Origin: an uncultured archaeon
GTDB taxonomy: Archaea > Altiarchaeota > Altiarchaeia > IMC4 > SCGC-AAA252-I15
DNA length: 47,687 bases
Direction: 5' to 3'
NCBI GenBank assembly: GCA_902384455.1
Contig: CABMCB010000025.1
Coordinates: forward strand, 1-47,687
In this document: one piece after another, positions 17,480 to 47,503 of the stretch
How the letters are laid out: the number at the start of each line of letters is the position of its first letter
Numbering within the stretch: position 1 is the first letter of the stretch
Translations under genes and position numbers: made by a program
The notes under the pieces: model-generated
Seen by the model: only the letters and a program-made list of their open reading frames with translations
Database searches by the model: none
What the model was told of the DNA's origin: nothing

Positions 17480-18131
17480 AATCCTTGTTGGTATCAAGTC
17501 CTGCTGGAAATATGCTGACCGGCGTCAAGCATGCCGAGAGACTTGGTTGCGGGACTGCGCATGGCCCTATAGGTTCTACGTCGGTCAGCACAAACCTTTG
17601 AAGCCGTTCGGTTCTTTGACTTCCAATCTAACGGGTGAACAGGACATTGAGTGTGTTGCTGTTCCCGATGACTTCAAGAACATTGGGCCGAAGATTCAGC
17701 GCATGGCGCAGTGGGCTGTAGAGGAAAAGGCAAGCCACCTAATCGTTGCTGATGATGACACCTACTGGCGGCCGGAGCGAGTGAAGGCTTTGCTTCGTCG
17801 CACGGAAAAGATTGGCGCGGACGTCTGCGCTCACATGCGTGTTGACCCCATCTATCCGCAAGGTTCCTTCTATGTTTTGCGGCCGAAGGCATATACCGCT
17901 CTTGCCGGAAGCCTATTGATGGACGTTGCCACGGTACCAGATGATGTACTCGTTGGCAGGGTGCTTTTGAATCATGTTGTCTGGCACCATACCAACGACA
18001 TCCATGTCGGCCCGAGGTGGTCCGAACAGCAGCCACGGCCATGTAATGACATAGTGTCAACCCACAAGTGTTTGCCAGCAGACATGCTGCATGCACATGA
18101 ACTTTGGAAGTCAGCATATGGGATTAGTTAG
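17472..18131 (+). CDS. GT31/Fringe-like glycosyltransferase
   Basis: RRQACRETW, ADDDTY (DxD), DDVLVG, STH. Confidence 0.75.
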   Translation: MHKILVGIKSCWKYADRRQACRETWLRDCAWPYRFYVGQHKPLKPFGSLTSNLTGEQDIECVAVPDDFKNIGPKIQRMAQWAVEEKASHLIVADDDTYWRPERVKALLRRTEKIGADVCAHMRVDPIYPQGSFYVLRPKAYTALAGSLLMDVATVPDDVLVGRVLLNHVVWHHTNDIHVGPRWSEQQPRPCNDIVSTHKCLPADMLHAHELWKSAYGIS

Positions 18132-19017: not shown

Positions 19018-19018
19018 A

Positions 19019-19807: not shown

Positions 19808-20442
19808 AAACCCTCATTGCAATCCTGAGCTGCCACGCTCACAAAGAGCAAGACCACGTCTGCCGGCAGACATGGGTGCCCGCGGGTGGCTATCGGTTCT
19901 TTCTTGGTCGTGACCCTAATTTTGGCGCAAGCGGTGCGGCCCCGCTGCAAGATGAAGAGTTCCTGGACGTGCCAGACGATTATCTAGGACTACCGTTTAA
20001 GACGCAGGCGGCTTGTCGTTGGGCACTCACACACGGCTACGACTTCTTGTTCAAATGCGATAACGATACTTATGTCCATGTACCGCGTTTGCTGGCCAGT
20101 GGGTTTGAGGACCGCGATTATACCGGGTGGGACTGGGAAGGACATGGAGGCTATTGTAGCGGCGGTGCGGGTTACTGGCTGTCGCGGGTAGCAATGCAGC
20201 ACATCGCAAACGCAACCCTTATTATGGATTATGCGGACACAACTCGCGGGAGCCTCAAGGGGGAAGACCTACAAATCGGTGAAGTGTTGCGGAATCAAGG
20301 CATAACACCCAACGGTGATGAACGGTATAGGCTTCACCTCCCTGGCCCAGAACCTGGCAATGACATTATCACTCTACATGATGTGCGCAACCCGTGCAAG
20401 GGTCAACGCATGTTTGACGTCCACCGGAGTGCCAATGAATAG
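19804..20442 (+). CDS. GT31/Fringe-like glycosyltransferase
   Basis: RQTW, DDYLGLPFK, KCDNDTY, SGGAGYWLS, GEDLQIG, TLH. Confidence 0.8.
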   Translation: MKTLIAILSCHAHKEQDHVCRQTWVPAGGYRFFLGRDPNFGASGAAPLQDEEFLDVPDDYLGLPFKTQAACRWALTHGYDFLFKCDNDTYVHVPRLLASGFEDRDYTGWDWEGHGGYCSGGAGYWLSRVAMQHIANATLIMDYADTTRGSLKGEDLQIGEVLRNQGITPNGDERYRLHLPGPEPGNDIITLHDVRNPCKGQRMFDVHRSANE

Positions 20443-21646
20443 CTTCGACGTTTGGGACACACTTATTGGCCGACGTTTCTTTGACGATGCTCGTCGGCGC
20501 CACGGCCTGCCGGTGCCTGGCAACGAGCCACAACGAGTCCTCCAACTTGAATTGGACCAGTGCTTCCCTATACTTGAAAATGTTAAGAAGGTTGCTCCCA
20601 GCGACCTGTTGCTGAGCGACTACGACCTGCCGATTCTTGAACCCATTGTCCGCCAAATCACAGGCTTGCAGAACGAATTGAAGGTCACAAACGACGGCAA
20701 ATATAATGACTGGGTCTGGCAGGGACTGCCTATCGCCGAGCACACTGGTGACAGTGCCAGGAGCGATGGCACGTGTGAACGTCACGGCATAAAATTCAAT
20801 CACACGGTGCTGACACGGTTCACGCAGGCGGAGGAAGAGGTAAACAAACACCTCCCCGCTCTTGCCTTACTTATGCGAGAGGCACGATTGACAACTTGGG
20901 CGCCGGACCCCATCGAGCGCGACTTCCAGTTGCTACAGGTTCAGGCTAACCTGCCATTCCTATTCGCTGCCTCTGTGCTAGTTCACAGACGGGTGCTGGC
21001 TGGTGGATTCAAACGATTGTTGTTGGCGAGCCGTGACTGCTGGCTGTGGCACCAGTTATTCACTGCCCTGAACCTTGGCGGCGAATACGACGTGGTGTAC
21101 TGGCTTACGAGCAGGTTGGTGCGGTATTTCCCATCCGAAACATATAAACGGTATCTTGCCGGCCTCCTGTCTGTGCCAGCATTGGCGGTTGACCTGTGCG
21201 GGTTCGGTACCTCCCTGCGGCACGCAGTTGGAGCCAATAGCCTAGAACTGGTTGGGTACGGTGATTGTAAGGTGGAGTGCGTCCTCCGTGGATGGATGGA
21301 TGAACTCTCAAATTTTGCCAGACATCCGATGGTTGCAGATGTCAATGCTGAAGGTCGGGCGGTGTACGCAAACCCATTGAACATTACCTGGGAGGCCGTG
21401 CGACCGCTCGCGGTTATGCACGAAGCGTTCATGCGCGGCGTGCGTCTGGTCTCACACTATGATTTCACCAAAGACATCAACGCAAGTTCGGATGCCCTGT
21501 ACGCGGTATTGGAAGGCGGGCTTCGGCGCTTGTGCGACTATCATGTAGCACTTGGTACGATGAAAGATTTCCGGGTTAGCGAAGCACAGGCTACGGCAGA
21601 CCTCATTAAGGCTGCCGGGCCGCTCCCAGAAGGGTTGATTGTATGA
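20435..21646 (+). CDS. HAD-superfamily-like protein of the type found in glycan clusters
   Basis: N-terminal SFDVWDTLI (HAD motif I), LSD, HTGD, ASRD. Confidence 0.6.
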   Translation: MNSFDVWDTLIGRRFFDDARRRHGLPVPGNEPQRVLQLELDQCFPILENVKKVAPSDLLLSDYDLPILEPIVRQITGLQNELKVTNDGKYNDWVWQGLPIAEHTGDSARSDGTCERHGIKFNHTVLTRFTQAEEEVNKHLPALALLMREARLTTWAPDPIERDFQLLQVQANLPFLFAASVLVHRRVLAGGFKRLLLASRDCWLWHQLFTALNLGGEYDVVYWLTSRLVRYFPSETYKRYLAGLLSVPALAVDLCGFGTSLRHAVGANSLELVGYGDCKVECVLRGWMDELSNFARHPMVADVNAEGRAVYANPLNITWEAVRPLAVMHEAFMRGVRLVSHYDFTKDINASSDALYAVLEGGLRRLCDYHVALGTMKDFRVSEAQATADLIKAAGPLPEGLIV

Positions 21647-22245
21647 ATCCACAACAAGTGTACGACCTCTACCGCAAGGACCCGCTGCAAGATATGTGGG
21701 ACTACTCGCCGATGCTGCGCGACGTCGCCAAGGGCAACATTCTTGAAATTGGCGCCCGTGGTGGTGTAAGTACAGCCGCTTTTCTGCTTGGTGTTGAGGC
21801 TAACGGCGGCCACGTCTACAGCATGGACATCAATCCGGATTGCGCCACTTTGTACGAAGGCCATCCGCAATGGACGTTCATCCACGCAAATAGCGGCAAC
21901 GTGGAGGATATGCGGAAGGCAGTGAGACAGTTCAAATTCGATGGCTGGCTTGATATTCTGCTTATTGACGGTGACCACAGTTACGATGCCGTTTGCCGGG
22001 ACATCGGTAATTGGGTCCAATGGGTTTGCAAGGGCGGGCTCATTTTCATGCACGACGTTGACCCACAGGTTTCAGCCGAGCAGATTGCCGCGTGGGGTTG
22101 GGTTAAGGATGAGCCTCGCCGAGCGTACGATGAGTTCGTTGCCGCGACAGGTTGGGAGGCTAGTATCCTTCCTGGCCGGTTCGGCATGGGCCGGATTGTT
22201 AAAGGGCAATTGAGCGGGATTGATTCTCACTCCAAATCCCTGTAA
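21643..22245 (+). CDS. Class I SAM-dependent methyltransferase (Methyltransf_24-like)
   Basis: ILEIGARGGVS, DILLIDGDHSY, GGLIFMHD. Confidence 0.85.
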   Translation: MNPQQVYDLYRKDPLQDMWDYSPMLRDVAKGNILEIGARGGVSTAAFLLGVEANGGHVYSMDINPDCATLYEGHPQWTFIHANSGNVEDMRKAVRQFKFDGWLDILLIDGDHSYDAVCRDIGNWVQWVCKGGLIFMHDVDPQVSAEQIAAWGWVKDEPRRAYDEFVAATGWEASILPGRFGMGRIVKGQLSGIDSHSKSL

Positions 22246-26019: not shown

Positions 26020-26934
26020 GTGGCGACGTTCAAAGAACCGATGTTGGCCGGCAAGGTCAAGGATATGGATATCAACAAGATTACGTACCCTTGCTATGCC
26101 TCCGCCAAGTTGGATGGTGTTCGGGCCATCGTGCTCAACGGTATCTTAGTCAGCCGCAACCTCAAGCCAATCCCGAACGCATGGGTGCAGAAACAGTTTG
26201 CCGGGCTCCCGGAAGGTACCGACGGCGAATTGATTTTTGGAGAAGCAACAATCGGCACTGCCTACCGCGACACCATGTCCGCGGTGATGAGCGAGGATGG
26301 GGAGCCAAAACAAGTTTGTTTCCACATCTTCGACAACGCATTCTTCTCCGGCGGGTTTGCAGCAAGGTTCAAACGGCTGGAACAGTTGAACGATTACATC
26401 CGCGGGGTGCTGGTCGTGCCCCACACCATTATTAGCGACGTAAGCGAAATGGAAACTGTCGAACGTGCCGCTCTGGAAGCCGGGTACGAAGGAATTATGG
26501 TCCGTAGCCTGCAAGGGCCATACAAGCAGGGCCGCAGCACAACGAACGAGGGCTACCTGCTGAAACTCAAGCGCTTTGAAGATGCCGAGGCCGTGGTGCT
26601 GGATACGTTTGAATGGGAGTCCAATACCAACACCGCCACAACGTCCGCCACCGGCCACACGGAACGCAGTTCACACAAGGCGGGCATGGTTGGCGCTGGT
26701 GTGTTGGGTGGATTGGATGTCCGCGGGCTCAACGGTACGTATGAAGGTGTAGAGTTTAGTATCGGTTCCGGATTCCAGGGTGCCGACAGCAAGACCGGCG
26801 AACGCGGCAAGCTCTGGGCCGTCCGCAAGTCCTTGGTTGGCAGGATTGTCCGCTATAAGTACTTCCCTACGGGGTCAAAGGAACGTCCTCGCTTCCCAAT
26901 CTTCTTGGGGTGGAGGGACCCCATCGACTTATGA
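26020..26934 (+). CDS. ATP-dependent DNA ligase
   Basis: KLDGVR (motif I), DGEL, EGIMVR, LLKLK, RFPIF. Confidence 0.92.
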   Translation: MATFKEPMLAGKVKDMDINKITYPCYASAKLDGVRAIVLNGILVSRNLKPIPNAWVQKQFAGLPEGTDGELIFGEATIGTAYRDTMSAVMSEDGEPKQVCFHIFDNAFFSGGFAARFKRLEQLNDYIRGVLVVPHTIISDVSEMETVERAALEAGYEGIMVRSLQGPYKQGRSTTNEGYLLKLKRFEDAEAVVLDTFEWESNTNTATTSATGHTERSSHKAGMVGAGVLGGLDVRGLNGTYEGVEFSIGSGFQGADSKTGERGKLWAVRKSLVGRIVRYKYFPTGSKERPRFPIFLGWRDPIDL

Positions 26935-27392
26935 TGAAAGACCTCACTGGAAAAAGATTTGGGAGGCTCATTGCCTTAGCGCCACACTCGCAAACGGATA
27001 AGCGGTGGAATTGGCTGTGTCTTTGTGATTGTGGTAATCACAAGGTCGTTGCTTCTGCTTATTTGGTGCGTTCTGGCGCTAGGAGTTGCGGATGTTTACT
27101 CCGTGACCATGTTAAAGCAGGTCAAACACACCCGGCAACGACGCACGGGATGTCTAAATCTCCTGAATGCAAAGCGTTTCGGAATGCTAAAAACCGCTGT
27201 CAAACTCCTCACTATAAAGTGCGAGGAATCCAGTTCCTATTCGCCAGCTTCGAGCAGTGGTTCGCTGAATTAGGTTATCGGCCATCCCCACAACATTCCG
27301 TAGACCGCAAGAATAATGCCGGGCACTACGAGCCGGGCAACGTGCGTTGGGCAACCCAAGACGAACAACATTCCAATAGGAATCTAAAATGA
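26931..27392 (+). CDS. Free-standing HNH homing endonuclease
   Basis: DLTGKRFGRL, WLCLCDCG, SCGC, SVDRKNNAGHYEPGNVRWAT. Confidence 0.85.
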   Translation: MMKDLTGKRFGRLIALAPHSQTDKRWNWLCLCDCGNHKVVASAYLVRSGARSCGCLLRDHVKAGQTHPATTHGMSKSPECKAFRNAKNRCQTPHYKVRGIQFLFASFEQWFAELGYRPSPQHSVDRKNNAGHYEPGNVRWATQDEQHSNRNLK

Positions 27393-31715: not shown

Positions 31716-31937
31716 ATGTACGTGGTGCCACCACAAATCGGAGCCGACGTGAAGAAACACTTCGCTTTCATCGCGATGTACTTTGGAATGTCCTGGTGGT
31801 TTCTCTGGACCGCCATCTTCTTCTTGATAGCCGGCCCGGCGCAAATGCTTGTCAGGAAGATGAACCAAATTGTCGGCACCGACCAGGCACGCAAAGACGG
31901 CTTTATCGTCGACGGCAACCAGTTCAACATCAACTAG
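31716..31937 (+). CDS. Small membrane protein (start may be GTG 31748)
   Basis: Hydrophobic FAFIAMYFGMSWWFLWTAIFFLIAG. Confidence 0.5.
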   Translation: MYVVPPQIGADVKKHFAFIAMYFGMSWWFLWTAIFFLIAGPAQMLVRKMNQIVGTDQARKDGFIVDGNQFNIN

Positions 31938-31963
31938 ACGTCGTCACTCCAACCCTGTATAAT
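31935..31963 (+). promoter_or_regulatory. Sigma70-like promoter of the que/dpd operon
   Basis: TAGACG-17-TATAAT, 9 nt before queD ATG 31973. Confidence 0.7.
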
Positions 31964-31972
31964 AGGTGGCGT

Positions 31973-32443
31973 ATGATTACTGCAAAACGGTACCACGATA
32001 TTTGCGCGGGACATAGGGTTGTCGGCCACGAAGGAAAATGCCGAAATCTTCACGGCCATAATTACCGCATCACGTTCACTTGTCAGGCCGACGAGTTGGA
32101 CAATGTCGGGCGCGTGGTGGACTTCTCCGTTATCAATTCAACACTGTGCCAGCATCTTGAAACTGAGTGGGACCACCGCATGCTGATTTGGAATGAAGAC
32201 CCGCTGCTAGACCGCGATGAAGGCGCCTGCCTTCAACATCTGGACCCGACCGTCGTCATCGTACCATTCAACCCGACCGCCGAGAACATCGCCAAGCACC
32301 TCGTTGAAGTAGTTGGCCCGATGGTGCTGCCGCCAGGGGTGCGACTCATCCGGTGCGAAGTGGAGGAAACCCGCAAGTGCGCCGCTGTTTATGAGCTTTC
32401 ATGTTGCCACGGGAACTGCTATGTGGAAGGCGGAGGACTTTAA
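31973..32443 (+). CDS. queD: 6-carboxytetrahydropterin synthase
   Basis: AGHR, CRNLHGHNY, DH, PTAENIA, EET. Confidence 0.92.
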   Translation: MITAKRYHDICAGHRVVGHEGKCRNLHGHNYRITFTCQADELDNVGRVVDFSVINSTLCQHLETEWDHRMLIWNEDPLLDRDEGACLQHLDPTVVIVPFNPTAENIAKHLVEVVGPMVLPPGVRLIRCEVEETRKCAAVYELSCCHGNCYVEGGGL

Positions 32444-33210
32444 TGCCGACATACACTCAGCCATTGAAACCACTAGGCGGCCACCTGAAGATTGTGGAGA
32501 TTTTCGAGACGGTACAGGGTGAAGGTAAGTATGCTGGTGTGCCGAGTATGTTCCTCAGGACCGGCGCCTGCAATCTGGAATGTGCGGGATGCGATACTAA
32601 GTGGGACCGTTGGTCGGAGATGCCGTATGCTGAAGCCGCGGCTATAGTGCTTGACCACAAATCCAGCCACCTCGTCCTAACTGGCGGCGAACCGACTCTG
32701 TGGCAGCCGCAACTCGGTGAGTTCCTGGAAGTACTCGATACTGCGTCCGAATCCCAGCCTGCTAACTTTCATACCGTCACCGTGGAATCAAATGGTGCCG
32801 TGCCAATTCGTGCGGGCGCGTTTTTGAATCGTGTTGACCTGTGGAGCTTCTCGCCAAAGGTCGGCACACTCGGCCGAGAAGAATACTTCCATTGGGAAGT
32901 CGTGCTGGAAAATCTCCGGTTGACAGAAGGACAGAACCAGTTGAAGTATGTTCTGGACCCGAACGTGCCGGAGGATGTGGACCGTGTATTTAAGTTCCAC
33001 GAGCAGGCACAGATATTTGTGCCGGACGAGTTCGTTTACTTCCAGCCGTACGACACGGAAACCCTAGTCAACATTCTTCATGCGCCAGGGCTGGACGATA
33101 TCACGTCGTACCTTCGCCGGCTAACGGCACTGACCAAGTTGGTCGCAGAACGGTCTGAACAGCGGTTCCGTGTGTTGCCACAACTTCATAAATTGTTGTC
33201 GTACCGCTAG
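32443..33210 (+). CDS. queE: 7-carboxy-7-deazaguanine synthase (radical SAM)
   Basis: EIFETVQGEG, CNLECAGCDT, LTGGEP, ESNG, SPK, PQLHK; TAATG-coupled to queD. Confidence 0.92.
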   Translation: MPTYTQPLKPLGGHLKIVEIFETVQGEGKYAGVPSMFLRTGACNLECAGCDTKWDRWSEMPYAEAAAIVLDHKSSHLVLTGGEPTLWQPQLGEFLEVLDTASESQPANFHTVTVESNGAVPIRAGAFLNRVDLWSFSPKVGTLGREEYFHWEVVLENLRLTEGQNQLKYVLDPNVPEDVDRVFKFHEQAQIFVPDEFVYFQPYDTETLVNILHAPGLDDITSYLRRLTALTKLVAERSEQRFRVLPQLHKLLSYR

Positions 33211-33228
33211 TTCTACCTTGGAGATAGA

Positions 33229-34305
33229 ATGAGCAGACATAATCCTTTGGACTTATCAAATCAAGTTTTCGGTTCATGGACTGTGTTGGAACTTTGCCAT
33301 GATGCGGATAAACACGGGCGACGCTGGGTTTGCCGCTGTGCTTGTGGTACCATTGCCAACATTAGCCAACAGAGCTTGACAGACAGTAGGTCCACTTCTT
33401 GCGGTTGTGTCGGCAATTTGAAGAAAGGGCACAGGGTACATGGCGACGGTAGCTCGCACAATGGTAAAAAGAAGGCACCAGAATACTCCGCCTGGGAGTC
33501 CATGATTGCGCGGTGTACTAGAGAAAATCACCCGTCTTACCAAGACTACGGGGGACGAGGTATCAAGGTCTGCGACCGTTGGGTTGTGGCGGCTGGCGGC
33601 TCCTATGAAAATTTTCTTGCTGATATCGGCCGACGGCCGACGGAGAATCACAGCCTGGACCGCAAGGATAACGATAAGGGCTACTCCCCCGATAATTGCC
33701 GGTGGGCAACGAAGGAAGAACAGTGGCAGAACACCAGGAGAATCCTTAACCCCGCGGAGTACCACGTCCGCTTAATTTTGAGAGATATCGGCGAAGACCC
33801 CAACCGGCCAGGGCTACTTGACACGCCATCCCGTGTGGTGAAGAGTTGGAAAGAACTCTTTGCTGGCTATGGACAAAATCCGTCTGATATCCTCCGTCGC
33901 CAATTTATCCAAGAAGGATATAAGACGGACGAAATGGTTGTGCTCAAAGATATTGAACTCTATAGTTTCTGCGAACATCACATGCTACCTTTCACTGGAC
34001 GGGCTCATGTGGCCTACATTCCAAATGCGAACCGCGTGGTTGGCCTGTCGAAGCTGGCGCGGCTTGTGGATTGCTTCGCCCGCCGGCTCCAAATCCAAGA
34101 GAAGCTGACCAACCAGATTGCCGATGCCCTTGTCGAGAATCTACAGCCACAAGGCGCCGCGGTGGTGATTGAGGCAAAACACCATTGCATGTGCGCGAGA
34201 GGAATCGGGAAGCAACACAGCTCCATGACCACCAGCGCACTCCGTGGTGTGTTCAAAGAGAAGAACGAGGTCCGTCAAGAGTTCCTTCGGTTGATACACG
34301 ACTAA
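33229..34305 (+). CDS. folE: HNH endonuclease fused in frame to GTP cyclohydrolase I
   Basis: N-terminal ~170 aa HNH ([34 protein letters not shown]); C-terminal FolE ([32 protein letters not shown]). Confidence 0.9.
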
Positions 34306-34310
34306 ACCTT

Positions 34311-34676
34311 ATGACCCCGGAACAAATCATTGCGGCAATGCTGCCGCATCTAACACTTGACCTTGCGCCGCCGAAATGGCAACGGCTAGCACGAAAGCAC
34401 AACGTCAAGACATTGGGCTTTGGAACTTGTTACCCGGCCGCTGAGGTGCTGTATTATCTGTGGGGCAAGGCCAATGGGTTCAAACCGTGCTATAAGAAAG
34501 ATGGCACGTTGCAGCACTGGTTCCTGCGACATCCAGACGGGAGAGTGCTGGACCCATCCGCCAACCAGTTTGAAGGACGGCTGCCAGATTACGCAGGCGG
34601 ACGGTGCTGTGGGTTTCTGACCAAAGGTTTATCGAAACGGGCGGCAGTATTGCTTGGCCGGATGGGCATGCAATGA
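34311..34676 (+). CDS. Small protein with putative papain/transglutaminase-like Cys-His-Asp triad
   Basis: GTCYPAAE...QHWFL...VLDPS; ATGA-coupled to the dpdA-like gene. Confidence 0.55.
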   Translation: MTPEQIIAAMLPHLTLDLAPPKWQRLARKHNVKTLGFGTCYPAAEVLYYLWGKANGFKPCYKKDGTLQHWFLRHPDGRVLDPSANQFEGRLPDYAGGRCCGFLTKGLSKRAAVLLGRMGMQ

Positions 34677-35662
34677 TACTTTATACAGCAGGAAACATGA
34701 ACCCGCAAGTCCTCGCGGGCATGTCAGAACGCACTAATGCCAAGAACTGGCTTGAAACCAACGCACACAAGGGCTCCCGTGACTGTGCGGACTGGTTTGC
34801 GAGTCCGTTCTGCGCCGACACGGAAGGCAACGGCGTTACCGGCTTCCGGCTATTCATTGACTCCGGCGCCTTCACAGCATGGGTGAAGGGCAAACCAATT
34901 GACCATGATGCGTACATCCAATACTGCAAAGGGCTGCTGGAAACCGCGGTGTGCCCTGTGGTGTTCGCTAGCCTAGACGTTATCCCAGGCAGTTTGACTG
35001 GGCCACCGCTCGAAGAAAACGACCCAGAGTTTGCTCGTGCGGCTGCGGCGGGTTGGCAGAACTACCTGAAGGAAAAAGCGGCTGGCCTCAAGACTATCCC
35101 GACGTTCCACCAGGGCGACCCGTGGGAGTTCCTTGACTTGATGATGGCGGACACTGACTACATCGGCATCAGTCCGCGCAAGGTCGCCAAGACTACGGCG
35201 CAGAAGGGTGACTGGCTCAATCAAGTGTTTCAACGCATTGATGCTGCCGGCAAACTACCGAAGCCAGGGAACATGCACAATGCCATCAAGACACATGGGC
35301 TCGGTGTGTCCTCGCCTGTGTTCATGGAGACGTTTCCCTTCTACTCCGTAGACTCGACACGTTGGCTCCAAGGTGGCAATGGCTACTTCTTCTTCTTCGA
35401 TGGCCACCGCATCCAACTTATCTTCTCTACAGACTGGGGCGGGCTGCATTGGTCGGTCAAGGACAAGATGCACTTTCGCGGGCGCTGCACTGGGGAAATC
35501 TATGCCCCAACGTCTTGGACACTGAGCGCAATACATCATTACCGTGCGCCCTATCAGGCAAAACTGGTATACTACTTTCACGAACGGGGCATCCGTGCGG
35601 ATGCTGAGATGAATGCCCACATCATTGAGCATTGGGAAGCACGGGGAGTGACATGGAACTGA
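34673..35662 (+). CDS. dpdA: DpdA-like DNA deazaguanine transglycosylase (TGT-like fold)
   Basis: FIDSGAF, LDVIPG, IPTFHQG, HGLG, SVDSTRW motifs; inside the queD-queE-folE operon. Confidence 0.75.
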   Translation: MILYTAGNMNPQVLAGMSERTNAKNWLETNAHKGSRDCADWFASPFCADTEGNGVTGFRLFIDSGAFTAWVKGKPIDHDAYIQYCKGLLETAVCPVVFASLDVIPGSLTGPPLEENDPEFARAAAAGWQNYLKEKAAGLKTIPTFHQGDPWEFLDLMMADTDYIGISPRKVAKTTAQKGDWLNQVFQRIDAAGKLPKPGNMHNAIKTHGLGVSSPVFMETFPFYSVDSTRWLQGGNGYFFFFDGHRIQLIFSTDWGGLHWSVKDKMHFRGRCTGEIYAPTSWTLSAIHHYRAPYQAKLVYYFHERGIRADAEMNAHIIEHWEARGVTWN

Positions 35663-36222
35663 AGACAATCGAGCTCAAACATCTCGCGGCCGCCTCGTGG
35701 CGGTTTAGTGAAGACCTGTCGCTCAATCACAGTGAACTGCGGTTCTACTCTCCCATTCAGCACAACATTGAAGTTTCTCTCAAGCGGGACGGACAAATTG
35801 CCCCAATCCACGTCCGGTTAGTTGCGGACCTCATGTACGAAGTTGTGGATGGCCACATCGTGCTAGATGCGGCAAAGAAGTTGGGGTTGACCTCCCTGTT
35901 GGTGATTGACCACGGCACTCTCGATGACACAGAGGCCCTGCTTCGATACATCACATTGAACTTGAATCGCTGCGGGCAATACGGCCACTATCACGTTAAG
36001 ATTCATCGCACTCTTGGCCTGCTATGGCCAGACGTTGATACTGCCACCCGCGCTGCCCGGCTTGGTGAGTATATGTCTTGGCCGGCAGAGCGCATTCAAG
36101 ACTATGTGGAGTTGGCAGAACGGGACGACAACTGGCAAAAGTTTATGTTTGTGCCCAAAGACGACGGAGAGCAGTCCGGCTTCTTTGCTGGTGAAGAGCA
36201 CCCTGTGGAGGATTGGCAATGA
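35653..36222 (+). CDS. ParB/Srx N-terminal domain protein
   Basis: SLKRDGQIAPIHVR...YEVVDGH...AAKKLG. Confidence 0.7.
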   Translation: MELKTIELKHLAAASWRFSEDLSLNHSELRFYSPIQHNIEVSLKRDGQIAPIHVRLVADLMYEVVDGHIVLDAAKKLGLTSLLVIDHGTLDDTEALLRYITLNLNRCGQYGHYHVKIHRTLGLLWPDVDTATRAARLGEYMSWPAERIQDYVELAERDDNWQKFMFVPKDDGEQSGFFAGEEHPVEDWQ

Positions 36223-36977
36223 CGCAATTGCTTTTGCCTGATACACGTATCTTCACATTGGCAGATGATACGCCCGGTGTTGTCGTTGAAAGTGGGCATG
36301 TTTACATTGTCAAATTGGTTGGACAAAAGTCACCTGTGCGGCTTTCTAGGCATGAGTTTCTAGTGATTGAAGACCGCGCAGACGTGGCGAGCCAACAAGC
36401 GCGCATCGAGATTTATCGGCGAGCCGCAGCCCTCGATGCTGCGTTCCCGGATACTTCAGGACTTGAGTTTGGCAGCGACAAGGAAGCGAAACAGATTAAG
36501 AGAGCACGGCTGAATTTTCTGCTATCAGTGAAGACTATTTTCAAGCCACAGGATATTGGCGACCTCGCTCCGTATCTTATGGACCAACACCAGCACGGTG
36601 CTGTCCGAATCAAATTTTCATTTCCTGATGCTATCCTTGAGGAAGTAACAACAGGATTGGCTGACATGGGAGTCAAAACTTTGGCCGGACACTTCCGCCC
36701 CATTGTGTATGGTGCGAGGAAAGAAAATGCGGAGCGCCGGTGGGCACCGAGCGGACTTATTACTTTCCCAAAGCCAGCCGATGTTGGAATTATTCCAGAT
36801 GAATTCCGCGCACGACGTGGTAAATTTAACGGCAGCTTCACCGAAGAAACTCCTGGCACTATTGAGTTGGCTAACTGGCGCCTAGCCGTTGGTGTTGCCA
36901 AGATGCTGGACGTTCCACTCCGCACCCACGATGGAACGGAAGACCGTCAGACAAGCATCTACGATTTGGAGGATTAA
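36219..36977 (+). CDS. Hypothetical protein closing the dpd operon
   Basis: ATGA-coupled; no recognised motif. Confidence 0.6.
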   Translation: MTQLLLPDTRIFTLADDTPGVVVESGHVYIVKLVGQKSPVRLSRHEFLVIEDRADVASQQARIEIYRRAAALDAAFPDTSGLEFGSDKEAKQIKRARLNFLLSVKTIFKPQDIGDLAPYLMDQHQHGAVRIKFSFPDAILEEVTTGLADMGVKTLAGHFRPIVYGARKENAERRWAPSGLITFPKPADVGIIPDEFRARRGKFNGSFTEETPGTIELANWRLAVGVAKMLDVPLRTHDGTEDRQTSIYDLED

Positions 36978-38078
36978 ATGGCAGATACGCAACTCGGCAT
37001 TGTTCTACGGCCGACAAACTTCAACGAGGTAATCGGCCAGGACGACACTGTCCAGGCAATGCGCGGCTGGATTGATAAGGGCCAGATTCCCCGTGCGGTC
37101 ATGTTGGTCGGGCCTCCGGGCACCGGCAAGACTACATTGGCGAAAATCTTGGCCCGAGGTGCGCAGGGATGGGAGTTCCCGACAGACATTGAGCCCGAAA
37201 TCATCGAGATGAATGCCGCAGACTCCACCGGCATCGATGACATGCGCGACCTCATCCAGGATACCCAGTCCTTCCCGATGGTTGGGAAACTGCGTGTTAT
37301 CATCCTGGACGAAGCGCACATGCTCTCGAAAGCAGCGCAGAACTGCCTGTTGAAGCCGTTCGAGGAGGCGAACTCGGCAACCCTGTGGGTCATCTGCACC
37401 ACGGAAACCTCCAAGATTATTCCAGCCCTGGTGACTCGCTGCCAGCGATTTGACCTAAAGCGGCTGACCAAGAAGAACATCCACGAACTGCTTGTGCGCG
37501 CTGCGACTTATACCGGAACTGCCGACTTTGCGCAGTTCGAGGAAATTGCAATCAGGGAGAACCTGAACCAACCGCGCCCGCTGTTGAATGCTTTTGGTAA
37601 CTTCGCCAACGGTGTGCCCGCGGCGGAGGCCATCAACGCACAGCTGAACACATTCGGTGTTGATGCCTTCGAGATTGCCAAGAACACCGTTTATGGTTCC
37701 TGGGACAAGGACGGACAGGTGTGGGGCAAGCCAGCCAAGTCCGTGCAATCATTGCTCAAAGAAATGGAAGACATCTTCAAGAGGAAAAAGAAGGCTTCCC
37801 AGGCGGACGACGTCACTGAAGCGGAAACTGAAGAGGAGCTAGCCAACCCGAAGGATGATGCCGTCAGCCGGCCAGAGTTTGCGCGCACAGTGCGCGCCAT
37901 CCTCGGTGGGTTGTTGAAGGCAGAAATCCTCAAAGGCAACACCAAAGCCGTGCGCAGTATTAACCTGCTGGTCCATTCGGTTCCCACCAACCCATTCGAT
38001 GCCCCGTTGGAGTATCCTGCCTTGACAGGCGTTCTTTTTCGTATTAACATGACTATGCGTGGTCAGGAGTACAAATGA
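36978..38078 (+). CDS. dnaX: Clamp loader, DNA polymerase III gamma/tau-like AAA+ ATPase
   Basis: RPTNFNEVIGQ, GPPGTGKTT, EMNAAD, LDEAHML, NCLLK..EE, TRC. Confidence 0.88.
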   Translation: MADTQLGIVLRPTNFNEVIGQDDTVQAMRGWIDKGQIPRAVMLVGPPGTGKTTLAKILARGAQGWEFPTDIEPEIIEMNAADSTGIDDMRDLIQDTQSFPMVGKLRVIILDEAHMLSKAAQNCLLKPFEEANSATLWVICTTETSKIIPALVTRCQRFDLKRLTKKNIHELLVRAATYTGTADFAQFEEIAIRENLNQPRPLLNAFGNFANGVPAAEAINAQLNTFGVDAFEIAKNTVYGSWDKDGQVWGKPAKSVQSLLKEMEDIFKRKKKASQADDVTEAETEEELANPKDDAVSRPEFARTVRAILGGLLKAEILKGNTKAVRSINLLVHSVPTNPFDAPLEYPALTGVLFRINMTMRGQEYK

Positions 38079-41040: not shown

Positions 41041-41315
41041 TGGCTGCCAAGAAGAAACCGTCTCTCAAGCAGCTGCCGACACCGCAGCAGGTTCAAGACG
41101 TCAAAGAGGCGATTGACATCCTCATCCGGGTCTGCAATAAGCACAAGTTCGCCGTGGGAGGATTCGTGTTCGGTGTGAAACCAATCATGCTGAACAATTT
41201 CGGCAACACCAAAGAGGCCAAGACTGCGGAGTTTTACGAGAAACTTGTTGAGCTGGCTGATGCTCGCCGGACAGCCGGCGATGTTCAGCATCAAACTGTT
41301 GGACGTGTGCAATGA
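41040..41315 (+). CDS. Hypothetical protein
   Basis: GGAGG before ATG 41040. Confidence 0.6.
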   Translation: MAAKKKPSLKQLPTPQQVQDVKEAIDILIRVCNKHKFAVGGFVFGVKPIMLNNFGNTKEAKTAEFYEKLVELADARRTAGDVQHQTVGRVQ

Positions 41316-41749
41316 TTGTCACCCTCATTGTTATTATCTTTGTCATCCTTATCCTCTTTTCCGGACTTATCACCGATGTGCTTGCCGCCTATGTGTGGAA
41401 GCGATGGCCGGTCGCGCTACCATTGAAACTTGTCAGGGATAACGTGCTCAAGCAAATTGAGGAGCGCGGCGCCCGCACTTGGACCAAGCAGTTAGAAGGC
41501 CAAGCATACCGCAAGGCACTCGCGGATAAGTTGATTGAAGAAGCGGAGGAAATTGGCGCGGCCGAGGACCGCTATGCTTTGACGGATGAGCTGGCAGACC
41601 TGTGGGAAGTGATGGATGCGTACCGTGTCGCTAATGGGATTCCGAAGCAAGAAATTGAAGCCGCTAGGATGCGGAAGTTTGCTGTTGCCGGCGGGTTTGC
41701 GAAGGGGTATTTTCTGTATGCAGTTTACGGAACTAAAGCACGTCGCTGA
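41312..41749 (+). CDS. MazG/HisE-like NTP pyrophosphohydrolase with N-terminal TM helix
   Basis: KLVRDN, KLIEEAEE, DELADLWEV, GGFAKG. Confidence 0.75.
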   Translation: MIVTLIVIIFVILILFSGLITDVLAAYVWKRWPVALPLKLVRDNVLKQIEERGARTWTKQLEGQAYRKALADKLIEEAEEIGAAEDRYALTDELADLWEVMDAYRVANGIPKQEIEAARMRKFAVAGGFAKGYFLYAVYGTKARR

Positions 41750-41848: not shown

Positions 41849-42289
41849 GTGAGCCGCAAGACAAAGAAACAAACTGCGCCCGCTGACACTGGTGGGCTTG
41901 ACCTCAACTTGTCGGTTACCGAAGAACTGGCCATTGACGTCACTGCGGCGCCATCGAATGCGCATAAGGCTGTCGAAGAACTGGAAAGCCTGCCGGCGAC
42001 AAATCGATTCCAAGAGCATACAGACGTTCCCGGTAGTGGTGAACCCGCTGGCCTCAAATATCCTCTAATCCTGATTGAAGCACTGAACCAGAGTTACCTC
42101 CACATTGCCGCTCGTAAGACAAACCATCCTGAGGCCCTAGTGCTATCCAACGGCTTCCGCTACTGGACTGTTTCGCCGGAGACGATGGAACCATTCCTGT
42201 ACGAAGGTGTTCAGCTCGTTGACGGATTCCGCGACTCGAAAGTCTGGCGCCCGGTCGCCGGCAATGAAAGAGGGTGGTATGTCGGATAG
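41849..42289 (+). CDS. Hypothetical protein
   Basis: GGAGG RBS. Confidence 0.6.
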   Translation: MSRKTKKQTAPADTGGLDLNLSVTEELAIDVTAAPSNAHKAVEELESLPATNRFQEHTDVPGSGEPAGLKYPLILIEALNQSYLHIAARKTNHPEALVLSNGFRYWTVSPETMEPFLYEGVQLVDGFRDSKVWRPVAGNERGWYVG

Positions 42290-42310
42290 CGGTATGTCGG
42301 ATAGCGGTAT
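42276..42310 (+). repeat. 15-bp tandem repeat (2.3 copies) duplicating the start of the HNH-MazG gene
   Basis: GGTATGTCGGATAGC x2 + GGTAT. Confidence 0.85.
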
Positions 42311-42962
42311 CCAGGTCCAGGATGCCCCACGGAAAGCCAGAGGCAAGGGCCACGGGCTCTCCAAACTACCTGAACATTTAATTTGGTGTGGCATCAAGCG
42401 GCGCTGTTACAACCCGAAGAGTCATAGCTTTCCGTGGTATGGTGGCCGCGGTATCGGAATGTCTCCCGTCTGGAGAGAAGATTTTGCTGCTTTCTTCAGA
42501 GATGTTGGCCCTCGGCCGTCGAAACAACACAGTCTTGACCGCATCAATACGAACGGAAATTATGAACTAGGCAACGTACGCTGGGCGACTGCCGTTGAGC
42601 AAGCAAATAACAAAGGCCCTCGCCTGCCTGGTTTCATTAGTTACCAGAGAGCGGCTTCAAAAACTGCTATCTATCCTGGTAAAGGCTCTTTTACCGGAGC
42701 AATCTACTGTGCGCTCGGTCTTGCTGGTGAGGCCGGAGAATTTGCTGATAAGATTAAGAAAGTGATGAGGGATGGCAACTGTGACCTCACAGCCGACCAA
42801 CGCAAGAAACTCATTGATGAATTGGGAGACGTCTGCTGGTACGTTGCGCAACTGGCGACTGAACTTGGTGTTCAGCTACACTACGTTGCCACAAGGAACA
42901 TAGAGAAACTTGCAAGCCGACAAGAGCGCGGCACTCTCCATGGAGACGGCGACAACAGATGA
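42279..42962 (+). CDS. HNH endonuclease fused in frame to MazG-like pyrophosphohydrolase
   Basis: HNH: YGGRGI, SLDRINTNGNYELGNVRWAT; MazG: LGLAGEAGE..DKIKK, DELGDVCWY, NIEKL.SR...GDGDNR. Confidence 0.85.
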   Translation: MSDSGMSDSGIQVQDAPRKARGKGHGLSKLPEHLIWCGIKRRCYNPKSHSFPWYGGRGIGMSPVWREDFAAFFRDVGPRPSKQHSLDRINTNGNYELGNVRWATAVEQANNKGPRLPGFISYQRAASKTAIYPGKGSFTGAIYCALGLAGEAGEFADKIKKVMRDGNCDLTADQRKKLIDELGDVCWYVAQLATELGVQLHYVATRNIEKLASRQERGTLHGDGDNR

Positions 42963-43201
42963 AACTCTCACCCGAGAAATTGAACGAGTTCATTGAGCGG
43001 GTCAAAGGGACCACACTCAATATGAGTACCGTGCTCGAAGAGGAATTCGATGTGCCTGGCGGTATTGATGGCCTAGACCCATCTCAGCTGCTAGACATCG
43101 ATAGCGAAATCTTCGAGTGTGAGCGGTGTAACTGGATTTGCGCCGATGACGAACGGGTGAATGAGGATGATGTTTGTCGAGATTGTTTGGAGAGTGAGTG
43201 A
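42959..43201 (+). CDS. Small acidic zinc-finger protein
   Basis: CERC...CRDC. Confidence 0.6.
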   Translation: MKLSPEKLNEFIERVKGTTLNMSTVLEEEFDVPGGIDGLDPSQLLDIDSEIFECERCNWICADDERVNEDDVCRDCLESE

Positions 43202-43713
43202 TGGGACATCGTGTGCTCATACCGGCCAGGGAGATTGAAGTTCGCACTCAGTCTCTCGGGCAGGAGATTTCCAGTTATTTTGCCGGCTGCGGCGGGCTAG
43301 ACCGTGTGGTGGTGACGTTGAAGGGCGCTGCCATGTTTGCGCAATCGCTACTGCGCTGGTTGCCGTATGATGTGGAAGTGAGCTATATCACTGCCAAGTC
43401 CTACCATGGCGACGCACAGCGGAGTTCCGGCAAAGTGGAAATCTATCCGCAATTCTTCACCAAGCCAAGCGAGAACATCCTAGTCATTGAAGATATCGTG
43501 GACACTGGGTATACACTCAAAGCAATTTGCGACCACATTGTCCAACCGCAGAGGATTGTCATTGTCTCTCTCCTCAACAAACCGAGCCGGCGCCAAATAG
43601 ACATCGGTCCTCACTGGTACGGATTTGAAATCCCTGACCTGTTCGTGTATGGCCATGGACTTGACCTAGACGAGAAGCAGCGCGGGCTCCCGGACGTGAT
43701 GGTCGTCGAGTAA
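43198..43713 (+). CDS. hpt: Hypoxanthine/guanine phosphoribosyltransferase
   Basis: LKGA, KSY, ILVIEDIVDTGYTL PRPP loop, FVYGHGLD. Confidence 0.88.
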   Translation: MMGHRVLIPAREIEVRTQSLGQEISSYFAGCGGLDRVVVTLKGAAMFAQSLLRWLPYDVEVSYITAKSYHGDAQRSSGKVEIYPQFFTKPSENILVIEDIVDTGYTLKAICDHIVQPQRIVIVSLLNKPSRRQIDIGPHWYGFEIPDLFVYGHGLDLDEKQRGLPDVMVVE

Positions 43714-43985
43714 TGCTCATTATCACTGCACAACAGGTCCAGAACACCGACGGCATTTGCGCCTACGTCGTCAAAGCCTTCATCAACACACGACCAATCT
43801 GGGAGGGCACTGTTGGCGGCCACATACGTTCTAATGGTTGGCCAGTTCTCGCCGGCCATATCGCCCGCAAAGCAGGCTTGCAATCTCCTGAAGAACTCCG
43901 TACAATTGAACAGTCATTGAAGGTCGCCGTGGACGGCCTAAAGCACTGTCCAGTGTGCGACAGAATCTTGGGATATGCGGAATGA
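43713..43985 (+). CDS. Hypothetical protein
   Basis: TAATG-coupled; C-terminal CPVC. Confidence 0.55.
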   Translation: MLIITAQQVQNTDGICAYVVKAFINTRPIWEGTVGGHIRSNGWPVLAGHIARKAGLQSPEELRTIEQSLKVAVDGLKHCPVCDRILGYAE

Positions 43986-44373
43986 AATCAGTAGAATCCT
44001 ACTTACAGCACCGCCGCACTGTCAAATCTTCGGTAGCACTATCTCGAAGTGCTGGCACGGTGTTTACCTGGCCTCTCCCTGGGAGGTGAGAAGTGGTGAA
44101 GCGCGCTATTGCCAGTTCTGTACGCCTTCTTGCAATGATGACTTTGGTGTTGGTGGGCTCTTGTACGCTATGCGCGAACGGGCAGAACGAGCCCGACGGC
44201 AAGCGCAAGGCCGAAATCATAAGCGCGCTGGCGGCGCATGGTTGTCCAGTCTCAAACTGGCAGGAAGCAACAAGCCAAATGCGCAAGATGGCGGCGGACC
44301 GCGGGTGGCAAACACACCGCGTCCCCGACGCACGAGTGCTGCTGCTCCTCGAACTCGGAAGCGCACACAGTAA
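43975..44373 (+). CDS. Third CxHGV...YCxFC motif protein (overlaps the next gene)
   Basis: KCWHGVYLAS...ARYCQFCTP. Confidence 0.45.
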   Translation: MRNEISRILLTAPPHCQIFGSTISKCWHGVYLASPWEVRSGEARYCQFCTPSCNDDFGVGGLLYAMRERAERARRQAQGRNHKRAGGAWLSSLKLAGSNKPNAQDGGGPRVANTPRPRRTSAAAPRTRKRTQ

Positions 44374-44449
44374 CCGTTGGATGGCCTTTCTGCCCGCCAA
44401 CAAACACTTGGACCCGCCATACGGAGGGAAAGATGCTGACGAAAATTAA
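44096..44449 (+). CDS. Secreted peptidoglycan-binding-domain-like protein
   Basis: Signal-peptide-like N-terminus; EIISAL...W...M...DRGWQT..VPDARVL...LG; GGAGGTG RBS. Confidence 0.55.
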   Translation: MKRAIASSVRLLAMMTLVLVGSCTLCANGQNEPDGKRKAEIISALAAHGCPVSNWQEATSQMRKMAADRGWQTHRVPDARVLLLLELGSAHSNRWMAFLPANKHLDPPYGGKDADEN

Positions 44450-44645
44450 GGGAACACTGGACTACGCAATTGTGTGGTCCCTGCGCGCCTCCTCTTCGCT
44501 GTTGTTCGCTATCGGCGCAGTTCTCACTGTGTCTACCCTCATTGCTGCGCTAAACGTCGTGCCCGAACTGCTGGTTGTTGCAGCTATCGGTGGCAGCGCG
44601 CTGACGGCCGCAACGTGGATGTGGCAAAAGGCCGGCAAGTTGTGA
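44433..44645 (+). CDS. Two-TM membrane protein
   Basis: GGAGG RBS; two hydrophobic helices. Confidence 0.55.
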   Translation: MLTKIKGTLDYAIVWSLRASSSLLFAIGAVLTVSTLIAALNVVPELLVVAAIGGSALTAATWMWQKAGKL

Positions 44646-45079
44646 AGGAAATCGTTGGCAATCTATGGCGCTATTACGGGCGGCCAAACATCGTCATCTG
44701 TATCACCACGAATTGTTTCGTGAAGAGAGATGGTTCCGCTGTGATGGGGCGAGGAGGCGCCGCAGAGGCGCGTAGTTACGTGCCAGGCATCGCCAAGATG
44801 CTAGGCGACCATATCCGAACGAATGGCGAGCTGGCAGGTTTCCTTACTCCGCAGGTGATTGCTTTCCCTGTTAAGCACGTTTGGTATGAGAAGGCAGACC
44901 TGGAACTTATTCGTAGTTCCGCGCACTGGCTTGGACAAATTGCCGCCAAGCGCAGCCAAAGTAATCTTTTCATTCTTCCTCGCCCTGGTTGTGGGAACGG
45001 CCACCTCTCCTATAGCGACGTGCGCCCGATTTTGGTAGACTTATTGCCGGACAATGTCTACGTGATTGACTTCGCATAA
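44642..45079 (+). CDS. Macrodomain (ADP-ribose binding or hydrolase) protein
   Basis: ITTN...VMGRG.A, FPVK..W...ADLELI, LPRPGCGNG.L. Confidence 0.8.
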   Translation: MKEIVGNLWRYYGRPNIVICITTNCFVKRDGSAVMGRGGAAEARSYVPGIAKMLGDHIRTNGELAGFLTPQVIAFPVKHVWYEKADLELIRSSAHWLGQIAAKRSQSNLFILPRPGCGNGHLSYSDVRPILVDLLPDNVYVIDFA

Positions 45080-46315: not shown

Positions 46316-47028
46316 AACTCCTCGGCATAGACGTTGGCTTCGCAAAAGAACGAGACACGACTGGCATCGCGTTTTATGAGGACAGTCCGGCGCTTGGATG
46401 TATCTTCGGTGTTGGGCGCGCAACAACCGACTGGGCCACGCGCAGTCTGCTTATCAAAACGAAGCCAGATGTCGTTGCTGTGGATGCGCCGCTCGTTGGA
46501 CAAGATATCGGCGTCCAAAGATTTGTAGAGCTTGAGTTTAGCCGCCACCCATTTCAGCGCAGGTGCAAAGCCGGCCTCAGTCACTCCGGAATGGGCTTGG
46601 AGTTGCGTAAGGCTGGCAACACAACACGGGAGCAGCTCATTGCCAACGATGTTGCAAGACATGACCAGATATTTGAGTCGTTCCCGAACGCTTTCCTCGG
46701 CGTGATGGTGCCAGATGTTTTCTATCGCAACATGCCGGAGCTGAAACGCGGACGCAAGTTTGACTGGCTCTACGACACCGCGGTTGACAATCGGCTGTTT
46801 GACGATTTGTATACCATGCTCGGTGTTCCTTTGGCATTGAGAGCCACAATTCGAGAAGAACGCGACCACGAACACCGCGCCGCCTGGATTTGTTTGCTTA
46901 CTGCCTGGTGTGTTGCGCTTGGATGCGCGAAACCTGTTGGCGATGTGGATGGCGGATTTTTCTGGCTACCTCCTGCTGGACTGTGGCAACCGTGGACGGA
47001 GCAGGAAAACCAGCCGACGTTTTTCTAG
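46312..47028 (+). CDS. DUF429-like RNase H-fold protein
   Basis: LGIDVGF...TG, VAVDAPL, FESFPNA. Confidence 0.7.
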   Translation: MKLLGIDVGFAKERDTTGIAFYEDSPALGCIFGVGRATTDWATRSLLIKTKPDVVAVDAPLVGQDIGVQRFVELEFSRHPFQRRCKAGLSHSGMGLELRKAGNTTREQLIANDVARHDQIFESFPNAFLGVMVPDVFYRNMPELKRGRKFDWLYDTAVDNRLFDDLYTMLGVPLALRATIREERDHEHRAAWICLLTAWCVALGCAKPVGDVDGGFFWLPPAGLWQPWTEQENQPTFF

Positions 47029-47044
47029 GGAGAAGGACGACGAG

Positions 47045-47503
47045 ATGCCGGCAACTTACATCCCACGCAAGGAAATCGGTTGGGCTGAAATCGGCGAACA
47101 GTTTACGCGCTACCAGCTCCTCAAGACCAAATGGCTAAACGTGTACTTACATCGCCTCAATGCGCCAAAGGCACATGCAGAGTGTCACAATCACCCATGG
47201 AGTTTTATAACGCTCATCCTTTGGGGTGGCTACAAAGAGTTCCTAGGCGACAGGTGGCACCGCAGGCGTCCGGGAACTATTCTATATCGCCGGGCTGAAA
47301 CCGCGCATAACGTCGTTACCAACGGGACTTCCTGGTCGCTTGTCGTTACAGGACCCAACCGTCGCGACTGGGGTTTCCAGGACTGTAGGTTGCCAGCGGG
47401 CCAAGGGCAAATACCGTGGGACGTGTACCGGGCGCGCCACAGGGAAGCGGCCCAAATACACCTCACCACAAGAGCCCAACCCCTACCAGGACAGCCCGGC
47501 TAA
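47045..47503 (+). CDS. Cupin-fold phage protein
   Basis: YLHR...HNHPWSFITLILWGGY.E...HNV. Confidence 0.65.
   Translation: MPATYIPRKEIGWAEIGEQFTRYQLLKTKWLNVYLHRLNAPKAHAECHNHPWSFITLILWGGYKEFLGDRWHRRRPGTILYRRAETAHNVVTNGTSWSLVVTGPNRRDWGFQDCRLPAGQGQIPWDVYRARHREAAQIHLTTRAQPLPGQPG

Follow-up and report, generated by a model that had tools for sequence, protein, structure and literature searches.

The window analysed here, the entire 47,687-bp contig CABMCB010000025.1 of a 2.41-Mb, 103-contig assembly, carries a candidate 7-deazaguanine DNA-modification locus made up of queD, queE, a fused HNH/folE gene, a gene for a 121-amino-acid (121-aa) Cys-His-Asp protein, a dpdA-like gene, a gene for a ParB-like protein and a gene for a 252-aa protein. 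A preliminary description of this DNA had given this gene order, and all seven genes are found in it on the plus strand. We assign the locus to the known DpdA1/preQ0 class, of which it is a new and divergent member. The best explanation for the whole, which we hold to be fairly probable, is a conventional phage module for preQ0 synthesis and insertion by DpdA1, in which the ParB-like protein is a plausible accessory and the 121-aa and 252-aa proteins are not tied to dpd function. The preliminary description had also proposed that the locus makes an undescribed deazaguanine base. This proposal is not borne out, since QueD, QueC and DpdA1 are conventional, no tailoring domain is found, and the families of the 121-aa and ParB-like proteins occur without DpdA. 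That the operon is a source of new deazaguanine chemistry is therefore very improbable.

In the mechanism that we propose, FolE, QueD and QueE together with the distant QueC would supply preQ0 within a phage replication and nucleotide-metabolism module. The DpdA1-type transglycosylase would exchange guanine in phage DNA for preQ0 after replication, giving dPreQ0, and this would protect the phage DNA against restriction. DpdA may be helped to engage DNA by the ParB-like protein, a small DNA-binding partner with a ParB fold, which lacks the NTPase arginine but would otherwise be comparable to bacterial DpdB. The 121-aa protein would be a widespread phage YunG-like Cys-His-Asp enzyme working independently of deazaguanine, and the 252-aa orphan would more likely be tied to the adjoining clamp loader and sliding clamp.

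A predicted DpdA1-type transglycosylase

A tblastn search with the DpdA-like protein matched 189 phage records, and all those listed are phages of the DpdA1 type (9g, CAjan/Seurat, Iggy, Dp-1, phiSM and actinophage kinds), with E-values of 2e-16 for 9g and 9e-19 for phiSM. Both of these enzymes are named DpdA1 in PMC10516641. The identity of the window protein is 28–36% to 9g and phiSM and 24–37% across the references. All columns that do not vary among nine phage DpdAs are kept in it, namely DSGA, LD.I, P..H.G, K.HG and S.DS, and the core residues kept include D63, H146, K206, H208 and D227. H208 is the equivalent of H196 in 9g, in a column that is invariant in all nine sequences; DpdA2 lacks His196 and is not detectable by similarity with 9g DpdA (PMC6884629). 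The window protein also has an N-terminal insertion of its own and a divergent C-terminal stretch of about 85 residues. Searches against the Pfam TGT and PADLOC DpdA models and PDB sequences, both with the single protein and with an alignment profile, gave no match; it is through its phage relatives that this enzyme is linked to the TGT fold.

Placing this TGT-like protein among the DpdA subfamilies had been suggested as a check, and the similarity to 9g, the match to phrog_887 and the His196 equivalent all place it with DpdA1. Its separation from DpdA2, DpdA3 and DpdA4 rests on the His196 criterion and on the matches listed. Judged by its sequence, the window enzyme is thus of DpdA1 type and is predicted to insert preQ0. 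In a tree of nine DpdA sequences the window and phiSM enzymes form a sister grouping with a support of 0.97, which is lost in a tree of 19 sequences. No close relatives of the operon were found in IMG/VR (queries: DpdA, the 252-aa protein and profiles A1, A2 and A5) or with DpdA in 401 sampled Acidobacteriota genomes, and a metagenome scan for them returned short contigs only.

The closest known systems are the dPreQ0 clusters of the CAjan/Iggy type (Queuovirinae and relatives). Like the window, they have phage-encoded FolE, QueD, QueE, QueC and DpdA, and their DpdA1 has the same core motifs and the His196 equivalent. The DpdA1-type phage clusters also share with the window a location within the replication module, near clamp or clamp-loader genes. 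The window differs from the CAjan/Iggy type in its gene order queD-queE-folE-x-dpdA, in the position of queC on the opposite strand at a distance of 31 kb, in the in-frame HNH domain on FolE, in the unique N-terminal insertion and C-terminus of DpdA, and in the extra YunG-like, ParB-like and orphan genes.

Three side observations concern dpdA loci in general. Thirteen of the 17 reference dpdA loci, from very different hosts, have a gene for dnaN/beta-clamp or another processivity factor within a few genes on the 3' side of the dpdA/que cluster; in the window, a clamp loader takes this place. In Microbacterium phage Megan (locus 670–2543), genes 2 and 3, which lie 5' of queC, encode divergent DpdA paralogs in tandem, an arrangement reminiscent of the heterodimeric eukaryotic TGT. 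The window also encodes, at 46910–47503, a "cysteine dioxygenase"-like cupin (phrog_4786, 9e-27) with an HNHPW motif. A homolog of it (E 4e-7) lies directly 3' of dpdA in Achromobacter phage vB_Ade_ART (L015:5918–6418), the only one of the 17 reference loci with such a gene, and the cupin might be another recurrent dpd-associated gene.

The preQ0 pathway and the predicted base

The QueD protein contains the motif CRNLHGH, which fits CxxxHGH. As stated in PMC10516641, CxxxHGH marks QueD as opposed to the LxxxHRHxF of its decarboxylase paralog DpdL, and the motif therefore rules out DpdL in place of QueD. At the HNH/FolE junction, the sole in-frame internal start nearby is a TTG at 33778. Three copies of one type of HNH endonuclease (phrog_374/3377), with mutual identities of 33–38%, lie on the contig, at 26910–27392, 33229–33750 and 42207–42660. 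The first is free-standing and the other two are in frame at the 5' ends of folE and mazG (MazG fusion open reading frame (ORF) 42207–42962), and these look like homing endonucleases turned into N-terminal fusions.

The QueC protein matches the Pfam family across residues 9–221 of 264 and has no second domain. Gat-QueC is thus ruled out, as this single-domain protein has no fused glutamine amidotransferase. The four Zn cysteines of E. coli QueC are indeed absent, as the preliminary description had noticed; it had read this as a pointer to an undescribed base. An alignment reveals that they are missing in all five phage QueCs compared (window, Iggy, MMDA13, ZHS and ART), which also have in common the segment SHTSYDG...NNH--SNVLRAQGF. 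The window protein is 58% identical to the QueC of Iggy, with which it shares this Cys-free lineage, and 62% to that of MMDA13. Phage Iggy DNA contains dPreQ0 only, according to PMC10484667. Since the same form of QueC is found in a plain-dPreQ0 phage, its lack of cysteines is no sign of new chemistry, and judged by these alignments the Zn-cysteine-free QueC is an established, normal phage lineage. A Campylobacter "QueC*" has been proposed as an ADG synthase in PMC10516641. A dADG product is conceivable, as our QueC comparison covered phage and E. coli sequences. In the host-bin assembly a search for a second QueC gave only weak PP-loop matches; as the binned host genome shows no other QueC, the phage appears to bring the full pathway.

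Pfam and PHROG scans of the 51 ORFs of the window revealed no QueF, ArcS, Gat, DUF3109 (DpdM) or formyltransferase (DpdN) domain, and at least 20 of these ORFs have no family match at all. The earlier remark that no QueF, ArcS or Gat-QueC is visible thus holds, and tailoring by DpdM or DpdN was rejected as no matching Pfam domain was found. By analogy with the phage systems above, the product of the locus is most likely dPreQ0.

The 121-aa Cys-His-Asp protein

The gene for the 121-aa protein lies between folE and dpdA. Seven relatives with 44–66% identity were found, and C40, H69 and D81 are invariant in all eight sequences, as are H74 and D76. The Cys-His-Asp triad, first noticed in the one sequence, is thus real at the family level. 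In the AlphaFold model (pLDDT 91.2, pTM 0.86), Cys40 begins a helix at residues 40–55, H69 lies in a strand of the following hairpin (residues 67–73) and D81 comes after it. A Foldseek search with this model returned nothing at E ≤ 0.001, and a PDB sequence search with the family gave nothing meaningful. In VIA-align the best Z-score is 4.8, so that all 50 rows fall under the reliability mark of Z 8. Most of them are nevertheless Cys-His-Asp enzymes: the SseI deamidase domain, arylamine N-acetyltransferases (NATs), protein glutaminases, LapG, PeiW/PeiP, transglutaminases, vasohibin and NlpC/P60. The model suggests a transglutaminase/NAT-like minimal fold.

A family name is suggested by the ESM Atlas, in which the protein resembles the YunG and Phage_YunG-like clusters (PF24585 and PF24591) with a feature score of 0.97 and TM-scores of 0.80–0.86; the ten best named matches share a family or clan, and the cluster matched with a TM-score of 0.80 qualifies, over its aligned part, for the YunG name. 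In contrast to this likeness in features and fold, Pfam YunG matches stay below the gathering score for four of the eight relatives (best E 0.0095), for phiCbK (1.7e-4, 22.1 bits against a cut-off of 27) and for Mx1 (0.0067), and there is none for the window protein itself. In the ESM Atlas, bacterial YunG domains occur in fusions with UDG, Ada Zn-binding, GNAT and FRG/DUF1016 domains. A literature search found no paper on the function of YunG.

A role for this protein in the modification itself would require that the C7 substituent is tailored by the 121-aa enzyme, alone or together with the 252-aa protein, for example by converting the nitrile of preQ0 or dPreQ0 via a thioimidate to an amide, amidine or acyl group, so that the DNA would contain dADG or an undescribed base. 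In favour of this, the gene overlaps dpdA by 4 nucleotides (nt), and the invariant triad sits in a confidently modelled fold in which a helix starts with Cys40. Amidases, N-acyltransferases and transglutaminases make up the weak structural matches, and the fusions to UDG, Ada and GNAT suggest substrates related to nucleic acids. However, gene overlap is the norm on this contig, and the Z-scores of the fold matches are low throughout. The family is moreover present in the phages phiCbK, RBC57 and Mx1, in which DpdA is absent by searches with the window protein and phrog_887; as a positive control, the phrog_887 search recovers the window gene at 6.8e-33. Caulobacter phages of the phiCbK type have the domain joined to a helix-turn-helix domain and encode it beside DNA polymerase I, and in Myxococcus phage Mx1 it heads a 1479-aa polyvalent-type protein with GNAT, ART-PolyVal and NUDIX domains. 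In two other loci the homolog is found away from dpdA, near thymidylate synthase in one (L010) and after a lysozyme gene in the other (L009), which belongs to a metagenomic relative of the window phage with the same order of clamp loader, 175-aa gene and NUDIX. None of the 17 reference dpdA loci has a member of the family.

This distribution argues against a deazaguanine substrate, and we regard tailoring by the 121-aa enzyme as highly unlikely. The suggested co-occurrence of its gene with dpdA fails, given three DpdA-free phages with the family and no occurrence in the reference loci. Of the earlier idea of an amidase or acyl/amine transferase acting on the C7 substituent, the chemistry is a reasonable guess in view of the model and the weak Cys-His-Asp fold matches, but the deazaguanine target is disfavoured by the distribution.

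The 252-aa protein

A full HMMER search of 1.84 billion representative sequences found three credible relatives of the 252-aa protein, with identities of 43%, 33% and 32%; a fourth match, P0013, is a spurious hit to a repetitive protein and was dropped from the alignment. No match was found in GenBank phages by tblastn or in IMG/VR, a word-indexed protein search returned only the protein itself, and there was none with a PDB profile, in Pfam/PHROG at E up to 10 or in the ESM Atlas. A search with profile A2 found no relatives in the other 60 of the 61 genomes in the phylum of the window. The stop codon of this gene abuts the start codon of the clamp loader, with 0 nt between them. An acidic tail with Q[TS]S[IF][FY] ends three of the four family members, and Q.[SD][ILMF][FY], the strict form of this motif, which three of the four also have, is found in the last 20 residues of one of 273 ORFs on the contig. 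The bacterial beta-clamp-binding motif is QL[SD]LF, which the tail motif resembles. From its position and C-terminal motif, we lean towards a replisome-associated protein with predicted clamp binding. In the family of the ParB-like protein, too, the C-terminus is an acidic tail, in which Q..F[FL] is semi-conserved (QSGFF here) in a style similar to the tail of the 252-aa protein, and Q..FF-type tails on both proteins might tether a ParB-fold partner of DpdA to the replisome.

ParB-like neighbours of dpdA

The ParB-like protein is part of a well-conserved group of 19 sequences in which the motifs WRFS, GQ..PI, DGH and NLNR.....H.H do not vary; 13 of the 19 relatives carry PF02195. The replacement of GxxR (or DGxxR) by DGHIV, described earlier for the window protein, holds in all 19 members, none of which has the arginine. 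Two genomic loci of this family (L019 and L020; ParB_N 3e-6 and 5e-5) were examined, both in Acidobacteriota. One is a small prophage (integrase, 275-aa gene, ParB-like gene, capsid gene) and the other a small island.

ParB_N proteins flank dpdA in 4 of the 18 loci examined (the window and the 17 reference loci). Besides the window, these are Cellulophaga phage phiSM, Arthrobacter phage Mufasa8 and Mycobacterium phage Cracklewink. In phiSM, as in the window, dpdA1 (gp52) is followed by a small ParB_N gene (gp51) that overlaps its 3' end, in phiSM inside the que cluster, and that lacks the DGxxR arginine, its motif being DGKVV. The gp51 protein is specifically related to the window family (hhalign 95.8%, E 7e-9; hmmsearch 1e-12), and the DpdAs of phiSM and the window both end in W-E-x-RG-x-TWN and have an IPG insertion. 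Unlike the window, in which neither gene was found, phiSM, with its preQ1/mdPreQ1 cluster, encodes QueF and DpdM (DUF3109) and carries mdPreQ1. Mufasa8 has dpdA, an overlapping ParB_N gene whose product retains DGEHR, and then folE-queC-queD-queE. In Cracklewink the ParB_N gene lies 5' of dpdA with one 40-aa ORF between them. In the 19-sequence DpdA tree, the ParB-linked members amount to three of seven in the clade of the window, one of three in the actinophage clade and none of nine in the 9g/Iggy clade.

Bacterial DpdA requires the ParB-fold ATPase DpdB, in Salmonella for preQ0 insertion, according to PMC10164549. The bacterial DpdA-DpdB(-DpdC) systems thus resemble the window in that a TGT-family DNA transglycosylase stands beside a ParB-superfamily protein. 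However, bacterial DpdB is described in the same text as a homodimeric ATPase of ~40–47 kDa with a DGQQR motif and an SspE-like C-terminal domain, whereas the window protein has 189 residues, no motif arginine and no PADLOC Dpd match; the window also lacks DpdC and the restriction genes dpdD-K. The phiSM DpdA1 cloned alone is reported in PMC10516641 to be inactive. From gene adjacency and the bacterial analogy, it is possible, but doubtful, that the ParB-like protein is a DpdB-like partner of DpdA, and its link to the system, if any, may be that of a partner of the transglycosylase and not of a tailoring enzyme. More generally, we tentatively suggest that a subset of phage DpdA1 (window, phiSM-like, Mufasa8-like and Cracklewink-like) could be two-component transglycosylases with an adjoining small ParB-fold partner. 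Where the arginine is lost, as in three of the four lineages, the partner would not hydrolyse ATP and could serve, for instance, as a DNA clamp or loader.

It is also conceivable, if unlikely, that all three extra genes are passengers of a dense replication module. The ParB-like protein would then be a generic phage ParB/Srx-type DNA-binding or nuclease protein, next to dpdA through shared early or replication modules. ParB-like proteins are indeed frequent in phages, with nine PHROG families matched here and wide occurrence described in PMC5512222, and the window family is found beside an integrase in the prophage and in the island mentioned above. Against pure coincidence speak the bacterial DpdA-DpdB precedent, the recurrence of immediate adjacency (three cases overlapping or one 40-aa ORF apart) across Bacteroidota, Actinomycetota and the window contig, and the position of the ParB-like gene within the cluster, between dpdA and the que genes, in phiSM and Mufasa8.

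Several points weigh against the conventional DpdA1/preQ0 module with an accessory ParB-like protein, and some of them also favour the passenger explanation. A ParB_N neighbour is missing from 14 of the 18 dpdA loci, and 4 of 18 overstates the frequency, as it was a hint of the pairing in a gene list of PMC10893344 that led to the choice of Cracklewink, Megan and Mufasa8. The four ParB-like neighbours are diverse and not one orthologous family; the profile of the window family misses Mufasa8 gp91. Both Acidobacteriota loci of the family are without DpdA in the locus and in the genome, so that co-occurrence of the ParB-like gene with phage-type dpdA, another check suggested earlier, does not hold. 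The window protein lacks the DGxxR arginine needed for NTPase activity and has no match to the PADLOC DpdB and DpdA models at E up to 1, and the inactivity of phiSM DpdA1 has other possible causes. The dPreQ0 assignment rests on analogy with Iggy, whose host carries its own que genes. The phage genome is incomplete, and a tailoring enzyme could sit in the unannotated ORFs or on another contig; homologs are found on longer contigs, of 85.6 kb and 98 kb. The clamp-binding motif invoked for the 252-aa protein is short.

Genomic setting

The contig is phage-like from end to end, with SSB, a UvrD-like helicase, a primase, a beta clamp, an SNF2 helicase, a ligase, a lysozyme, NUDIX and MazG; its left end encodes a fragment of a DNA polymerase. 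No tRNA was found in it. The features of the locus are listed in Table 1, with gene calls fixed by inspection of start codons and by Pfam, PHROG and NCBIfam scans.

Table 1 Features of the deazaguanine locus and related genes in the window
Feature	Position	Strand	Evidence and remarks
DNA polymerase fragment	2–499		adjoins queC
queC, 264 aa	554–1348	-	Pfam QueC 1.7e-49; 31 kb from the other que genes
Phage beta clamp	13492–14622		
Promoter-like site TAGACG-17-TATAAT	31935–31963	+	directly 5' of queD; 10/12 matches; weak evidence
queD, 156 aa, 6-carboxytetrahydropterin synthase	31973–32443	+	PTPS 5e-27; phrog QueD 6.5e-49
queE, 255 aa, radical-SAM 7-carboxy-7-deazaguanine synthase	32443–33210	+	phrog_2076 2.1e-37; NCBIfam QueE ~1e-18, under cut-offs
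HNH+FolE, single 358-aa ORF	33229–34305	+	HNH phrog_374 5e-55 (residues 3–172); FolE (GTP cyclohydrolase I) 9e-73 (residues 177–356)
121-aa YunG-like Cys-His-Asp protein	34311–34676	+	triad C40, H69, D81
Predicted DpdA1-type DNA guanine transglycosylase, 329 aa	34673–35662	+	phrog_887 1.2e-32
ParB-like gene, 189 aa	35653–36222	+	ParB_N 1.2e-3, below cut-off
252-aa near-orphan	36219–36977	+	acidic C-terminal tail with QTSIY
DnaX/RFC-like clamp-loader ATPase	36978–38078	+	phrog_5846 1e-57; NCBIfam dnaX_nterm 7e-46

From queD through the clamp loader, the gaps at successive junctions are -1, 18, 5, -4, -10, -4 and 0 nt, and the clamp-loader gene overlaps the next downstream gene by 4 nt, so that the chain runs on past the gene for the 252-aa protein. 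The tight, mostly overlapping packing noted earlier is thus confirmed for gaps of -10 to 18 nt, but it is no operon marker: 24 of the 50 junctions on the contig overlap or abut, with a median gap of 1 nt. As tight packing is the norm on the contig and the chain continues into the clamp loader, packing does not delimit a dpd operon. Promoter-like sites are not enriched, with 7 on the contig compared to 4.9 ± 2.7 in shuffled sequences.

The bin that contains the contig belongs to a lineage of small genomes (61 in the phylum, 0.8–2.5 Mb each). The nearest relatives of the ParB-like gene are in 7-Mb Acidobacteriota genomes, so that the bin may not be the host. Within the replication module, the region 17472–22245 contains four glycosyltransferase-like genes (Galactosyl_T, GT2), a 443-aa protein without known family, a Methyltransf_24/CmcI-like methyltransferase and then a trypsin-like protease; these genes could act on DNA, on sugars of the host surface or on another target. 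A second nucleotide-metabolism cluster at 42207–45079 comprises MazG, a phosphoribosyltransferase (43198–43713, Pribosyltran 5e-14) and a phosphatase-like gene (44474–45079), and a PRA-PH-like gene at 41312–41749 is counted with it. In a phage with deazaguanine, a purine or base phosphoribosyltransferase could be relevant to the salvage of bases.

Implications

7-Deazaguanine DNA modifications shield phages from restriction and from Cas9, and they are mined for new chemistries. The locus described here is probably no source of a new base, which spares a costly effort in liquid chromatography–mass spectrometry on the wrong genes. The recurrent ParB-fold neighbour of phage dpdA is instead a modest, testable lead. 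ParB is not mentioned in the main texts of two surveys of deazaguanine systems in phages (PMC10516641 and PMC6884629), the supplements of which might mention it, and a literature search for a phage ParB-like partner of DpdA found no such paper. If it is true that some DpdA1 enzymes have two components, this would account for unsuccessful reconstitution in heterologous hosts, as with phiSM DpdA1, which was inactive when expressed alone, and the existence of DpdB-like partners would alter the way in which DpdA enzymes are produced for biotechnological use.

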